A stretch of 20,000 bases of DNA, taken from contig CAYFJV010000002.1 of assembly GCA_964343575.1 (NCBI GenBank), positions 375,809 to 395,808 of the forward strand, in the 5' to 3' direction. A program made the translations under genes and the position numbers. Positions 2,508-19,096 of the stretch are shown here, one piece after another; positions within the stretch are counted from its first letter, which is position 1, and each line of letters begins with the position of its first letter. The notes beneath the pieces are model-generated. The model ran no database searches. It saw only the letters and a program-made list of their open reading frames with translations, and was not told the DNA's origin. The DNA is from an uncultured Methanosarcinales archaeon (GTDB taxonomy: Archaea; Nanobdellota; Nanobdellia; Woesearchaeales; GW2011-AR9).

Positions 2508-2672
2508 ATGGGAAAAGGAACTGCAGCAATGGGAAAAAAGAGTGGGAAGACTTCTCACATTCAGTGTAGAAGGTGCTCTGCTCATGCGTATCACATTCGT
2601 AAAAAACGTTGCGCTTCTTGTGGTTACGGAGAAACCGCTACTGTTCGTAAGTACGCTTGGAATAAAAAGTAG
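2508..2672 (+). CDS. rpl37e: 50S ribosomal protein L37e (54 aa)
   Basis: Manual translation MGKGTAAMGKKSGKTSHIQCRRCSAHAYHIRKKRCASCGYGETATVRKYAWNKK*. Zinc finger CRRC...CASCG intact. Missing from the ORF track. Confidence 0.97.
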   Translation: MGKGTAAMGKKSGKTSHIQCRRCSAHAYHIRKKRCASCGYGETATVRKYAWNKK

Positions 2673-2730: not shown

Positions 2731-3867
2731 TTACTTCCTAGAATACAGTGCCCTAGCTTTCTCTACCAATTCTGGTTGGATGTAATGCTTTACCGTTACC
2801 GTTGAGCGTTCTTCCCAAACATTATGTTTTTTATTGTAGTGCTTATGGCCAAGTTCTTTGGCAATGTTTAGGAAAAGAGAATTTACTTCGGCTTTACTTG
2901 CTGATTTTCTTCCTTTGAGGAATTTTTTCACTTCTTCGGTAGCGTAGTGTGACCTTACAATGTGAGGGTAGAATTCTTCTCCACAATATTTGTGAAAGGC
3001 TTTCTTGAACTCCTTCTCTGGCAGAGGCCTGCCACTTTTGGTAGCAAAGACAAAATCATTTCTTTTTTTACTTCGCATTAGCGCAGCTAATCTTTGTAGA
3101 TATTTTGCTGGGAAGTGCTTGCTAATATTTTGTGGCACACCATCTTTGCCAATGAATTTGAATGTGGCAGTTTGCTTCTTTTTGTTAAGTGTGATGTCTT
3201 TTTTCTTGATAGTGGAAAGTCCTTTGTGTTGGTGTTGCTTGAAATAGATCTCATTACCAATTCGCATTTTGGTGTGCAGAAGAGTGTACATTGGAAGTGC
3301 CATGGGATCTTCATAGTTCTTAAGTGCAGAGTTCACAGATCGTTGAAGCTTTGGGTAATGCTTTGCAAAGTTGTGCACTTTTCGATATTTTTTCTTAGTT
3401 GCCTTTGCCTTCTTTTCTTTACTGTAAAGGTAGGCAAAAGTTCCTCCCTTGTTCTGGTAAAGCACATCCCAATGATCATGATTTGTTTGGTCATGCACGG
3501 TTAGTTTTTTTGCAAAAAGAGAATAGGCTGCATTAAGTGAAGTTCCATCTGGAAGGGTGGTGAGTCTTGCTCCCTTCGGGTTGCCTTGTGGGTCACGCAT
3601 GCCTTTGAGAAATTGAGGATCTTTAGTGTCTCTTAGGTCGCTGAGCCGGTGATGCGCTTTGAATAACTTGATAACTTGCTGAGCTTCAGGAAGTTTTATT
3701 TTTGAGCGTTTCCAACCTTTGGCTGTCTTCTCATAAACTTTTAGATTTCTTGCTTTTATTCTCAATGTTCCAGAAGGAAGAGTTGTCTTGTTAGCCTTTT
3801 TTGCTGTGGCTTTTCTCTTGTTGTTTGTCCTTTGTCTTTTTACTTTGCTAAGAAGTTTTTTGAGCAT
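2731..3867 (-). CDS. DNA topoisomerase IB, compact bacterial/viral type
   Basis: Catalytic pentad in order: R202 (MRIGNEIY), K241 (FKFIGKDG), R305 (PHIVRSHYAT), H341 (ELGH), Y362 (KHYIQP). Also GLSTIKKKDI and KYRKVHNFAKHYPKL segments typical of TopIB. Confidence 0.85.
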   Translation of the reverse strand: MLKKLLSKVKRQRTNNKRKATAKKANKTTLPSGTLRIKARNLKVYEKTAKGWKRSKIKLPEAQQVIKLFKAHHRLSDLRDTKDPQFLKGMRDPQGNPKGARLTTLPDGTSLNAAYSLFAKKLTVHDQTNHDHWDVLYQNKGGTFAYLYSKEKKAKATKKKYRKVHNFAKHYPKLQRSVNSALKNYEDPMALPMYTLLHTKMRIGNEIYFKQHQHKGLSTIKKKDITLNKKKQTATFKFIGKDGVPQNISKHFPAKYLQRLAALMRSKKRNDFVFATKSGRPLPEKEFKKAFHKYCGEEFYPHIVRSHYATEEVKKFLKGRKSASKAEVNSLFLNIAKELGHKHYNKKHNVWEERSTVTVKHYIQPELVEKARALYSRK

Positions 3868-3878
3868 TTTTATTATTC

Positions 3879-4775
3879 TTATCTCTCTTTTTTGAGCTCT
3901 TCAAGGAGAAGAGAAGTTATATCCACCTTGCTCGTTTTGTTCTCAATGCTGTTTGTTGAGATGATTTCTTTAACTTTTGCTTTCTTGAGCTTTTTGAGCG
4001 CCCCTTCAGCATAAAGCCCATGCACACATATGGCAGTAACCTTTTTTGCTCCCAATTTTTTTGCTTTTTTAGCGGCTTCAATTACGGTGTGTCCTGTTGA
4101 GATGATATCATCTACAATAACCGCATGTTTTCCTTTCACATCAACTGATTTGATCATTCGCACCTCTACATGCCTTGAGCTGTGCCTTGTTTTGATAAAG
4201 AGGCTACAATCGCAGTCAATCTCTTTTGCAATAACTTCAGCCCATTGATAAGATTCACTGTCTGGCCCAATAATTACTGGGTTTTTGATCTTCTTTTTGA
4301 TGTATTGTCCCAAAAGTTTGTTAGCACTGAGTCGCTTTGCAGAGATGCTGAAGATCTCTTTCATGTTCTGGTACCTATGCAGGTGTGGGTCAATAGTAAT
4401 AATCTTGTTAAAAGAATTGTTGATGAGCTTTGCCATTACTTTACTTGAGACGCACTCTCCAGTATGAAATGCTTTGTCTTGGCGCATGTAGGCTAAGTAG
4501 GGCGCTACAAGAATAACTTTTTTTGCCCCCATTTGTTTGGCAGTTTCGGCAGCAAAAATAACTTTGAACAATGATGCGTTTGGTTTTGGTTGGAAGCTGT
4601 GCACAATTACTACTTTTTTTCCTTTGAGTGTATTTTTTTGTTTTGTTTGGAACTGCATGTAAATGTCGCCATCGGGAAACTGACTTACTTTGAGAGGAAC
4701 GTATTTACCTTTAGTCTCTTTAGCAAGTTTCTTTGCTATACTTGTAGAATTACCGCAATCTGTGAAGTAAAGCAT
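3879..4775 (-). CDS. prs: Ribose-phosphate pyrophosphokinase
   Basis: FPDGD, PYLAYMRQDKAF, IDPH, IGPD and VDDIISTGHT (PRPP-binding loop), CVHG. Likely start ATG 4775; the ORF track starts at 4832. Confidence 0.96.
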   Translation of the reverse strand: MLYFTDCGNSTSIAKKLAKETKGKYVPLKVSQFPDGDIYMQFQTKQKNTLKGKKVVIVHSFQPKPNASLFKVIFAAETAKQMGAKKVILVAPYLAYMRQDKAFHTGECVSSKVMAKLINNSFNKIITIDPHLHRYQNMKEIFSISAKRLSANKLLGQYIKKKIKNPVIIGPDSESYQWAEVIAKEIDCDCSLFIKTRHSSRHVEVRMIKSVDVKGKHAVIVDDIISTGHTVIEAAKKAKKLGAKKVTAICVHGLYAEGALKKLKKAKVKEIISTNSIENKTSKVDITSLLLEELKKER

Positions 4776-4842
4776 AGTTTGCAATAAAGAAGTTTTGCTA
4801 TATAAATCTGCTGAATGCTTGGTTAGAAACATGTAAAGAGAA

Positions 4843-14402: not shown

Positions 14403-15728
14403 CTACAAGGAAATTCTTTCTACTCTAATCTTGGGGAGCAATTTATCAATTAATTTTTTATCAATCCCTTCAACTCTTCTTCTTTGTACATGTGCGCTCG
14501 CAGTAGCCACAGCATAAGCCAAGTGATCTTTTAGACTTCTTCTTCCACCCGGTCTTTCTGTAGATAAGGAAGAAGTGAGGTAGCCGGATAATAAAGCGTC
14601 TCCCGCTCCGATGGTACAACAAACTTTCTCTCTCTCAACTTGTGGTCTTGCATAGAAAATACCTTGGTCTCTGACCAGGAGCGCTCCATCACAATCTAAA
14701 GAAAGAAGAACGGTATTAATGTTTTTTTCTCTTCTAAATGCGTCTGTTACTCTTGCCGTAGTAGTTATATTTCCATTAACAGGTTCTCCAAGGTATCTAG
14801 ACAGCTCATCACGATTTGGTTTGATAAGGTAAGGTCTTTGATCAACAACTACTGCAAAAGCTTCTGGGTTTGAGGAATCAAAAACTACTTTTATTCCTTG
14901 AGAAGCAAAGTAGGACGTTAATTCTGCGAAATAAGTTGGTGAAATATCTCTTGGTAAGGAGCCGGAAAGAACAAGGATATCTCCTTCTCTGATTGCTCCT
15001 TTCAATGAGGCTTCTAGACCAGCTAAGTCTCCTCCTCTCACCCTTGGATTTTCTGGAGCGCTTCTTCTCTTATCTTCTCTTCCAGTGACCGTAACAGAAA
15101 GTGTTTCATCAAGAGTGGGCCTTTGAATGAGAGGAACATGGGCATCATAAAGAGATTTTTTTAGCTGTCCACCATTATCTCCTCCTAATAGAGCATACAG
15201 GCAAAGGTTAGCAAAACCCAATCCCCTCATGCCAGAAGCAACGTTAACAGCCTTGCCACCTGGGATTTTATCTTCACCATGAATTTCTAAGCTAGGATTT
15301 AAAGAAACTAAATGAACTACGGGGCCACCCCAAGCACTAGGACACCTTTGCCTGACTAAGTAATCAGAAAGTTGAGTTATTCCAAGATCCTCTGCTCCGC
15401 TTGTATTCGCAGAAGCGCATGCATCTTGAAGTTCTTTTAGAGTGTTATAGTCTCTTGCTTTTCCCAATTGACAGTTGCGAACGTCTTCATCTGTTTCGAG
15501 AAGTAATGCCTCAGTATTGTGAACTGAATTGGCAAGGAGGCCATAGCCCCGGTGGTGACCATCGACAACAAAGGTTTGGTATCCGTCTTTTACGACAACA
15601 AGTGGGTCCATTGGATGGTCCCCTCTTGAAAGGAGGTAAGCAACTCTCGCTGTAGCATCCAGGTCCAAATGGCAGTCTTCAGTAACATAAAGTGAAGAAA
15701 GCGGCACTTCTATTTCTCTCATTCTCAA
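14403..15728 (-). CDS. Fusion of a ParB/Sulfiredoxin-like N-terminal domain and a PfkB-family (1-phosphofructokinase-like) kinase
   Basis: N-terminal VPLSSL...PLVVV..G...VVDGHHR. C-terminal LNPS, PGGKAVNVA, VLSGSLP, IKPNRDEL, TIGAGDA. Start is TTG 15728 or ATG 15722. Confidence 0.82.
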   Translation of the reverse strand: MRMREIEVPLSSLYVTEDCHLDLDATARVAYLLSRGDHPMDPLVVVKDGYQTFVVDGHHRGYGLLANSVHNTEALLLETDEDVRNCQLGKARDYNTLKELQDACASANTSGAEDLGITQLSDYLVRQRCPSAWGGPVVHLVSLNPSLEIHGEDKIPGGKAVNVASGMRGLGFANLCLYALLGGDNGGQLKKSLYDAHVPLIQRPTLDETLSVTVTGREDKRRSAPENPRVRGGDLAGLEASLKGAIREGDILVLSGSLPRDISPTYFAELTSYFASQGIKVVFDSSNPEAFAVVVDQRPYLIKPNRDELSRYLGEPVNGNITTTARVTDAFRREKNINTVLLSLDCDGALLVRDQGIFYARPQVEREKVCCTIGAGDALLSGYLTSSLSTERPGGRRSLKDHLAYAVATASAHVQRRRVEGIDKKLIDKLLPKIRVERISL

Positions 15729-17282: not shown

Positions 17283-17338
17283 ATCTTCTCCTTTTTGAAT
17301 AATAAGATATAAAAACCAGGGGGGGTTCTTGGAGCTTG

Positions 17339-19096
17339 ATGAAAGCTAAAGATCTTATTCAAAAATATACTGATTTTTTCAAGAGTAAAGGGCACGTCCA
17401 AATCCCATCAGCAAGCCTGGTGCCAGCTAATGATCCTTCTGTTCTTTTCACAACCGCAGGTATGCAGCCTCTTGCACCCTATTTTGCTGGACAAGCGCAT
17501 CCTCAAGGAAAGCGTTTGGTAAACGTACAAAAGTGTATGCGAACCGTTGATTTTGAAAATATCGGAGATAACACCCATCACACTTTTTTTCAAATGCTTG
17601 GAAACTGGAGTCTTGGGGATTATTTCAAAAAAGAGTCCATCACTTGGAGCTTTGAATTTCTTACAAGTCCAGAATGGCTCAACTTGCCTTTAGAGAAATT
17701 GAGTTTTACTGTTTTTGAGGGAGATGATGCAGCACCAAGAGATTCTCGAGCAGCAGAGGTTTGGAAAAGTTTGGGGGTTCCAGAAGAGAAAATTACTTTT
17801 TTAGGTGAAGATAACTTTTGGTCTGCTGGAGAGACTGGACCTTGTGGGCCAAGCTCAGAAATATTTTATTGGACTGGAGATGAAAAACCAAAAACTCAAA
17901 ATCCTGATGAAGATGAAAGGTGGGTCGAGATTTGGAACAATGTCTTCATGGCTTATAACAAGAAAGAAGGCGGGGTAATCGAAGAACTCCCACAAAAAAA
18001 TATTGATACTGGGATGGGTTTGGAAAGGACTCTTGCTGTGCTTAACGGAAAAAAGAGTGCTTATGAAACAGATTTATTTTTGCCAATAATTCAAAAAATT
18101 GAAGAGCTTTCAGGAAGTGCTTATGCTGAACATAAAAAAGAGATGCGTATCATCGCTGATCACATTCGGGCAGCAAGTTTTATCTTAGGGGATGATAACA
18201 AGGTTGTTCCTTCTAACGTTGATGCAGGTTACATCTTAAGAAGATTGCTTCGGCGTGCAATTCGTTTTGGAAACATGGTTGGTTATGGTGCTTCACTTGC
18301 TGAACTTGCAAAAATAGTTGTTGACCAGTATAGTGAGCTTTATCCTGAGTTAGCTAAGAATAAAGGAGTAATTCTCTCTGAGATTGAGAAAGAGGAAGCC
18401 AAATTTAGAAAAACACTTGAGAAGGGACTTAGAGAATTCGAGAAAATGTCTGGCCAGGAGATCTCTGGGAAAGATGCTTTTCTCTTGTTTCAATCTTATG
18501 GTTTTCCTCTTGAGATGACTGAAGAAATGGCTGATGAAAAAGGGATTAAAGTTGATACTGAAGGTTTCTTTGCTGAGTATGAAAAGCATCAGCAACTCTC
18601 TCGTGAAGGAGCAGAGAAAAAGTTCAAGGGCGGGCTTGCTGATCTTTCAGAAGATACCATTAAGTTACATACTGCAACACATTTGCTTAATGAAGCACTT
18701 CGTAAAGTAATTTCTCCTGAGATCTCACAGCGAGGAAGTAATATCACTCCAGAGCGTCTTCGTTTTGATTTTAACTTTGATCGTAAATTGACTGCTGAAG
18801 AGATTAAGGCTGTTGAAGATGAAGTGAACCGAGTTATTAAAATGGAAGTTGATGTAGTTCGCAAAGAAATGCCAATGGCTGAAGCTGAGAAGCTTGGAGC
18901 GCAAAAAGAATTTGGAGCAAAATATGGTGATACTGTTTCAGTTTACTTTGTTGGAGATTATTCTAAAGAGTTTTGTGGCGGGCCACATGTAGAAAACACT
19001 CGTGACATTGGCCACTTTAAGATTGTTAAAGAGAAATCTTCTGCTGCTGGGATAAGGCGGATTAAAGCTGTTGTTGAGATTGGGAAGAACCATTGA
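17339..19096 (+). CDS. alaS: Alanyl-tRNA synthetase, short form (~585 aa)
   Basis: DPSVLFTTAGMQP, QKCMRT, HHTFFQMLGNWS.GDYFK, GPCGP.SEI, EIWNNVF, IDTGMGLER, editing motifs HTATH and CGGPH. Ends right after GIRRIKA. Confidence 0.97.
   Translation: MKAKDLIQKYTDFFKSKGHVQIPSASLVPANDPSVLFTTAGMQPLAPYFAGQAHPQGKRLVNVQKCMRTVDFENIGDNTHHTFFQMLGNWSLGDYFKKESITWSFEFLTSPEWLNLPLEKLSFTVFEGDDAAPRDSRAAEVWKSLGVPEEKITFLGEDNFWSAGETGPCGPSSEIFYWTGDEKPKTQNPDEDERWVEIWNNVFMAYNKKEGGVIEELPQKNIDTGMGLERTLAVLNGKKSAYETDLFLPIIQKIEELSGSAYAEHKKEMRIIADHIRAASFILGDDNKVVPSNVDAGYILRRLLRRAIRFGNMVGYGASLAELAKIVVDQYSELYPELAKNKGVILSEIEKEEAKFRKTLEKGLREFEKMSGQEISGKDAFLLFQSYGFPLEMTEEMADEKGIKVDTEGFFAEYEKHQQLSREGAEKKFKGGLADLSEDTIKLHTATHLLNEALRKVISPEISQRGSNITPERLRFDFNFDRKLTAEEIKAVEDEVNRVIKMEVDVVRKEMPMAEAEKLGAQKEFGAKYGDTVSVYFVGDYSKEFCGGPHVENTRDIGHFKIVKEKSSAAGIRRIKAVVEIGKNH

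Follow-up and report, generated by a model that had tools for sequence, protein, structure and literature searches.

A separate topoisomerase IB branch of DPANN archaea with an HxxR motif and a short hairpin after the catalytic histidine

Results

The topIB gene and its surroundings

The window, by which we mean the whole stretch of 20,000 nucleotides analysed here, carries a topIB gene on its minus strand (2731..3867) that encodes a 378 aa protein with a PF01028 match of 55.6 bits (cut-off 23.7). Upstream of it lies prs (3879..4832, minus strand), which ends at 3879 and leaves a gap of 11 nt, as the original prediction had described, and downstream a convergent rpl37e gene is found 58 nt off (2508..2672, plus strand; PF01907, E 8e-20). 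Both genes are given as context only, and the neighbourhood with prs is not conserved. The GC content of topIB is 0.393 compared to 0.398 for the contig, and its GC3 is 0.375, with six neighbours spanning 0.29–0.40. Of 64 loci of the family, 31 have a TATA-like box at -38..-26, whereas shuffling gave 6.5 on average and 12 at most; in the window, cotranscription of topIB with prs is more likely. Near the gene the window shows short, chance-like repeats only, and the sigma-70 promoter scan is unsuited to archaea.

Several further features of the DNA were recorded. In the window, a PfkB kinase (14403–15728, minus strand) carries at its N-terminus a segment of the ParB-like nuclease type (PF08857, E 0.012, under the cut-off), an unusual fusion, and an AlaRS of 586 aa (17336–19096, plus strand) stops soon past the tRNA_SAD domain and seems to be devoid of the usual C-terminal domain. 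The source genome has eight PF00589 matches on contigs C1, C2 and C4, topIB being one of them, and a canonical XerA at C1:187165.

A conserved active site behind a beta-rich N-terminal domain

A protein search with the window TopIB gave 547 matches; among the 120 listed of these, identity is mostly 50–58% over about 90% of the length. Family members are ~340–390 aa long and come mostly from Woese-, Pace- and Aenigmarchaeota, and we refer to them as the DPANN TopIB family. Conservation was counted over 118 of the 120 listed proteins, with an internally duplicated row and a short row excluded. The catalytic pentad announced by the original prediction is in place, as R202, K241, R305, H341 and Y362 are located at these positions together with H302 and the sequence PHIVRSHYAT, and His and Tyr are spaced by 21 residues. 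Each residue of the pentad is found in 118/118 members and H302 in 117/118, and the span of 21 residues is likewise kept in 118/118. Being kept across 118 family members, the catalytic residues and the span are not due to chance, and the pentad columns align with those of outgroup TopIBs.

The AlphaFold model of the 378 aa protein (pLDDT 93.7) displays, in this order, a beta-rich N-terminal domain, a long connecting helix (150–181), the catalytic domain and a hairpin (342–353). The pentad belongs to the TopIB catalytic domain (residues 151–378; 2734..3417, minus strand), within which the H302-x-x-R305 motif (2953..2964, minus strand) has His where Lys stands in most TopIBs. The basic beta-hairpin that follows H341 (residues 342–353; 2809..2844, minus strand; predicted strands 342–345 and 350–353) occupies the site of the eukaryote-type linker and contains W351, invariant in 118/118 members. 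The alignment of the family profile to CsTOP1 runs through H341.

At the other end of the protein, the original prediction saw a basic N-terminus of about 130 residues that was unrecognisable. This describes residues 1–30 (3778..3867, minus strand), a basic, unconserved extension that is short or absent in most aligned relatives and modelled at pLDDT 57–68, but not residues 31–150 (3418..3777, minus strand), which form a conserved, folded, cap-like domain (pLDDT 89). Nor is this domain entirely unrecognisable, since in the whole-model comparison its C-terminal half aligns with TopIB caps, the overlap beginning at model residue 99 with human TopIB and at residue 60 with variola. Y146/Y148, at the end of the domain, are likely the hinge tyrosines, judging from PMC8748870, where a hinge tyrosine is described as required for TopIB closing.

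Searches with the N-terminal part returned little. No Pfam family was found for residues 30–150, and an exotoxin A match (E 0.26) was put down to chance. The N-terminal domains of bacterial/poxviral TopIB (PF21338/PF09266) were detected in 0/118 members at E 0.01, and PF02919 (Topoisom_I_N) and PF14370 (Topo_C_assoc) in 0/118 as well; Atlas leads for the domain point to PF02919 with 0.83–0.85, values below 0.9 that count as a lead only. Modelled alone, the domain has a best Z of 3.1 among solved chains, the variola cap giving Z 2.9 over 49 residues of the second half, and for residues 30–100 no clear structural match was obtained among these chains (best Z 3.1). Against viral models the best E was 0.06, with Motura TopIB at rank 4 (E 0.22), and profile comparisons of the domain were not significant with thaumarchaeal (E 0.08), short bacterial/poxviral (E 0.34) or phage TopIB (E 0.05). 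The missing match does not show that the fold is new. Since residues 30–100 have no clear structural match, they could possibly act as a specificity or oligomer module.

Structure places the family with TopIB

All 118 aligned members match PF01028. PF00589 is matched weakly by 47 of the 118, and the window protein scores 19.9 bits, below the cut-off of 27.1. Matches of the family profile in the PDB are TopIB structures only (5/5), with CsTOP1 as the best (6Z01, E 9e-15), and Foldseek with the predicted model gives TopIBs at ranks 1–22, the first recombinase appearing with E 2e-4. By way of the same model, solved TopIBs are superimposed with Z 18.2–20.0 (rmsd 3.2–4.2, 200–264 aligned), compared to Z 13.2 for XerH, the best recombinase (rmsd 4.4, 177 aligned), Z 7.3 for TelA (rmsd 4.4, 163 aligned) and Z 6.9 for TelK. 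Set against integrases and protelomerases, the TopIB assignment made by the original prediction is therefore upheld by Foldseek and by the Z scores of the predicted model.

The spacing of the active-site residues was compared as well. Arg-II and His are 36 residues apart, the distance being 40–43 in most TopIBs and 23 in the XerA of the source genome, with some 22–23 expected for tyrosine recombinases. Three positions after Arg-I the family has Asn in 113, Ser in 4 and Cys in 1 of the 118 members, and the XerA of the source genome has Glu. Table 1 of Gibb et al. (PMC2943603) gives Glu/Asp-I (Cre E176) and His-II as the two recombinase-only residues; XerA of the source genome has both His-II and Glu-I, and the DPANN TopIB family His-II only. 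Position Arg-I+3 alone cannot separate TopIBs from recombinases, because thaumarchaeal TopIBs have Asp there.

HxxR and a long His-Tyr span in other TopIBs

In an outgroup of 85 TopIB-like proteins, each 223 aa or longer, the His-II position holds Lys in 76, His in 6 and Arg in 2, with one gap, and the His-Tyr span is at least 12 in 5. Four of the 16 matching phage records, namely the TopIBs of PaBG, Motura, phiRSL1 and RHph_N46, all annotated as topoisomerase, have HxxR in 4/4 cases with spans of 15–19. Six IMG/VR loci provided three usable domains, and all three combine HxxR with a long span, a count that is biased as the loci were found by a mostly HxxR-type query. On a tree computed from an alignment without the His column and without the linker, His at the His-II position accounts for 5 changes and the long span for 5 changes. 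Since phage TopIBs have HxxR and the residue changed five times, we consider the His-II position a labile position of TopIBs and not a recombinase marker. HxxR and the extended linker, which the original prediction took as distinctive, are thus traits of the family (117/118 and 118/118) that jumbo-phage TopIBs carry too. In PMC2943603, the TopIB Lys at this position is described as pointing away from the scissile phosphate, and His-II is said to be unique to tyrosine recombinases and absent from TopIBs.

In their own right, the jumbo-phage TopIBs (KF147891, MN094788, AB366653, MW980063; L105, L106, L109) form a clade with HxxR and a span of 15–20, which joins thaumarchaeal TopIB weakly (89/81). 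The entry on jumbo-phage TopIB in PMC7824862 records it as a phage-specific version and goes without motif detail, and tblastn with P0001 as query at E 0.1 found no jumbo-phage TopIB. Further unnamed TopIB lineages (P0183, P0207, P0233, P0174, P0197, P0266, P0234) display His-II and/or inserts of 12–79 residues past the catalytic His; no relatives of P0183 were detected in a scan.

A separate branch with a patchy distribution

Three trees of 103, 46 and 41 rows were computed without eukaryotic, poxvirus, Asgard, Bathyarchaeota and Marine Group II rows, the first also without seven truncated or misaligned rows. The DPANN family is fully supported on a long branch in the three trees, with no supported sister, and the clade that unites bacterial-type TopIBs with similar short enzymes (99/96) does not include it. 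The label "bacterial-type" was given to tree rows by their motifs. AU tests reject neither a grouping of the family with phages (p 0.26) nor one with Thaumarchaeota (p 0.34) or core bacterial-type TopIBs (p 0.055), and a clade uniting all HxxR lineages is not recovered, nor is it rejected (p 0.24). Nesting inside bacterial TopIB, which the original prediction had named as the outcome speaking against it, is therefore not what the trees display, although it is not formally rejected at p 0.055. The distinct subfamily it proposed is borne out by monophyly (100/100) on a long branch and by the gap in score: when 1.84 billion representatives were searched with a profile, near-full-length members had E 4e-66 or better and the next TopIB E 1.5e-19. 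The DPANN family is a separate deep branch of TopIB.

Relatives are encoded by 190 stretches of GTDB genomes. By title, most of the 80 stretches kept belong to Woese-, Pace-, Aenigm-, Nanohal- or Iainarchaeota. Methanosarcinales stands in the title of 11, which for the most part group with Woesearchaeota-type rows in the tree, and 6 have a bacterial title. Five of the bacterial copies (L020, L037, L068, L074, L081; Omnitrophota, Planctomycetes, Ratteibacteria) form one clade among archaeal rows (SH-aLRT 95), several of them with bacterial-looking neighbour genes, and likely go back to one archaea-to-bacteria transfer of a DPANN-type topIB. The sixth, beside Aenigmarchaeota, is probably misbinned.

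Within the archaea the gene is patchy, with topIB in 17/36 genomes of the taxonomic family of the window and in 1/24 other families of the order; among genomes at least 90% complete it is found in 36/401 of the phylum and in 21/41 of the window's own family. The 17 own-family copies all sit in one branch of the tree (17/17), which suggests inheritance with loss. The dN/dS ratio is 0.04–0.23 in 17 of 18 close pairs of the TopIB family, indicating purifying selection, in a set where one pair is saturated, one is counted twice and the window's own gene has no close pair.

A chromosomal gene in genomes that keep their other topoisomerases

The neighbours of topIB differ between relatives. The 908 ORFs that flank it in 95 loci (86 distinct) include no family that occurs in more than 10 loci. 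The lack of a mobile-element context noted for the window extends to the relatives, where a scan of the immediate neighbours (147 of 177) found no integrase, capsid or terminase; the 147 include one DDE transposase, one LAGLIDADG and one GIY-YIG. Inverted repeats within 200 nt of the gene showed no excess over shuffles, with the longest averaging 8.1 compared to 7.9 upstream (90 loci) and 7.7 compared to 7.6 downstream (89 loci), at one shuffle per flank. A tRNA lies at most 300 nt from topIB in 3/60 loci, one of them a duplicate. The original prediction considered a domestication from a virus or bacterium; topIB does behave as a domesticated chromosomal gene, whereas a viral origin is plausible and not shown by the tree (AU p 0.26). 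In L017, a fusion of topIB with the upstream antiporter (921 aa open frame) was dismissed, as the antiporter frame ends at a stop codon of its own. In a single genome topIB directly follows topA (L018:3-1445).

In 37 genomes of the window's taxonomic family, carriers and non-carriers of topIB together, we found a tyrosine recombinase above the cut-off in 37, TopIA in 37, GyrA in 36 and Topo VIB in 33; of the four genomes without a Topo VIB match, two carry topIB and two do not. In G029, a carrier that is 96% complete, the recombinase search gave just a weaker match (E 2.5e-25). As tyrosine recombinase, TopIA, gyrase and Topo VI are kept with or without topIB, it replaces none of them, and a role as substitute for XerA, Topo VI, gyrase or TopIA is ruled out by their retention. 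Besides, split matches and unusually long frames suggest inteins in gyrA (G006, G017, G023, G027) and top6B (G010, G019) of relatives.

Discussion

We consider it highly probable, by analogy with characterised TopIBs, that the DPANN enzyme would act as a monomeric, accessory, ATP-independent relaxase of positive and negative supercoils. If it follows the TopIB mechanism, the cap (residues 31–150) and the catalytic domain would clamp the duplex, Y362 would attack the phosphate held by R202, K241, R305 and H341 to give a 3'-phosphotyrosine, and the free DNA end would swivel before the nick is closed again. H302 most likely takes the place of the Lys that, without being catalytic, makes contact with a neighbouring phosphate. 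The basic hairpin 342–353 is likely a miniature linker that would touch the downstream DNA and brake rotation; a linker at the position of the hairpin is described in PMC8748870 as contacting DNA and affecting relaxation. The likely role is to ease transcription and replication torsion beside gyrase, Topo VI and TopIA, and an accessory role fits the presence of topIB in about half of the genomes of the window's taxonomic family. Against a plain relaxase speaks the near-invariance of H302 (117/118), taken together with His-II being recombinase-only in the account of PMC2943603.

The latter point is the starting point for a TopIB-derived Holliday-junction resolvase or strand-transfer enzyme, in which H302 would serve as His-II and the hairpin would set Y362 for paired or in-trans cleavage. 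HxxR in 117/118 members, the residue that PMC2943603 calls recombinase-specific, as well as the invariance of the hairpin and W351 agree with such an enzyme, and a plain relaxase would be redundant given that three other topoisomerases are present. However, fold, spacing and Pfam matches are all those of TopIB, Glu/Asp-I is missing from the family, the N-terminal domain is beta-rich with no helical core-binding domain, XerA-like genes are retained in the genomes, the flanks show no site conservation, and His recurs at the His-II position among TopIBs (5 changes), so that we judge this enzyme unlikely. The resolvase-like activity of the original prediction has not gained ground either, as the HxxR motif is all that speaks for it. 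In vitro, junctions can be cleaved by ordinary TopIBs as well. The related idea of a living intermediate between TopIB and recombinase, with H302 as a true His-II, Y362 positioned by the hairpin, and junction resolution or strand transfer as its activity, has a small chance of being correct.

Two other functions were weighed. The enzyme might relax DNA and yet be specialised in DNA bridging, repair or the handling of structured DNA through its novel N-terminal subdomain, as residues 30–100 are conserved without a clear fold match, the title of PDB 3m4a gives a secondary DNA-binding site in a bacterial TopIB, and the gene is patchy (36/401 genomes) yet under purifying selection. No repair or segregation partner recurs among the 908 neighbouring ORFs, however, and one locus only adjoins topA, and we hold this specialisation to be quite improbable. 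A protelomerase-like enzyme making hairpin ends would draw on the fold and chemistry common to both groups (Z ~7 with TelA and TelK), but TopIBs score 11–13 Z units above, and the longest perfect palindrome in the genome (6 contigs) consists of 12-nt low-complexity arms, with none near topIB. The bioRxiv preprint 10.64898/2026.05.13.725050 also reports 208 assembler-circular genomes for the phylum at large, and hairpin ends appear extremely improbable.

Where the gene came from is a separate question. In one scenario, which has about an even chance of being right, its donor was a large DNA virus akin to the HxxR jumbo phages, and the capture was followed by inheritance with loss in DPANN archaea and by one transfer to bacteria. 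The best viral structural matches are the TopIBs of Motura and PaBG (E 1e-15 and 2e-14, TMq 0.59–0.61, 318–335 columns), the three best Atlas clusters consist of Uroviricota TopIBs (0.94–0.95), and the jumbo-phage and DPANN enzymes both have HxxR and an insert. The profile alignment to phage TopIBs covers residues 55–368, compared to 126–372 for bacterial-type and 149–344 for thaumarchaeal TopIBs. Against this, the phage clade and the DPANN family are unjoined in both careful trees, the AU tests reject no placement (phage, Thaumarchaeota or core bacterial-type), the bacterial-type profile gives the best score (E 1e-26), and the N-terminal domain alone reaches E 0.05 with the phage profile. Neither an IMG/VR pattern scan nor a phage/plasmid tblastn, both of limited reach, found viral or plasmid members of the family. 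The evidence on origin is split, with structure, alignment length and Atlas pointing to phages, the profile score to the bacterial type and the PDB to CsTOP1.

The passages on archaeal TopIB in PMC4824112, PMC2647321, PMC8185306, PMC3914693 and PMC9348778 place the enzyme in Thaumarchaeota and their kin, without a DPANN form. The word "topoisomerase" is absent from the main text of PMC8204110 and of bioRxiv 10.64898/2026.05.13.725050, and our literature search, in which subscription journals were thinly covered, turned up no publication dealing specifically with a DPANN TopIB. In the supplement, Badel et al. 2021 (PMC8371274) list a six-member cluster, FAMallInt_25_60_000008, with five rows tagged TopoIb from Woese- and Pacearchaeota. 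Three genomes named there carry the DPANN topIB (L042, L056, L080), and we infer that the accessions of the cluster are DPANN TopIB proteins, which makes this supplementary entry the only trace of the family that we found in print.

The DPANN TopIB is a further unnamed archaeal kind, apart from the eukaryote-like enzyme and the short form of Marine Group II, and complicates the use of TopIB as a TACK/eukaryote marker. Its function is likely ordinary. Together with the jumbo-phage TopIBs, it contradicts the absence of His-II from TopIBs as stated in PMC2943603, and it offers a natural test of the proposal made there that recombinases added His-II to a topoisomerase active site. Since its 12-residue hairpin is located at the site of the eukaryotic linker, it would also be a minimal model for the control of rotation by the linker.

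The family was also compared with known systems. With XerA and other tyrosine recombinases it shares the catalytic fold and the HxxR motif, but its N-terminal domain is beta-rich and comes without a helical core-binding domain. Short bacterial and poxviral TopIBs (Deinococcus 2F4Q/3M4A, variola 2H7F) have the same size, catalytic core, connecting helix and Tyr motif, yet with KxxR and a His/Asn-Tyr distance of 9 in place of HxxR and a span of 21. The eukaryote-like thaumarchaeal enzyme (CsTOP1, 6Z01) likewise has an insertion directly after the catalytic His; there KxxR is combined with a His-Tyr distance of 99, whereas the DPANN family has HxxR and a 12-residue beta-hairpin, with no long helical linker. 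For eukaryote-like TopIBs, PMC4824112 gives linkers of 53–76 aa. TopoIb_2 of PMC8371274, from Marine Group II/III, is distinct from the DPANN family, and the cluster in the supplement of that paper is unnamed and goes without discussion in the main-text section consulted. Jumbo-phage TopIBs (phiRSL1, PaBG, Motura, Lu11, RHph_N46) have the RKRHY pentad, HxxR, a span of 15–19 residues and possibly an N-terminal stretch in common with the DPANN family, and provide the best viral structural match; they differ in being 540–606 aa long, with a large helical extra N-terminus, compared to the ~340–390 aa of the DPANN enzymes.
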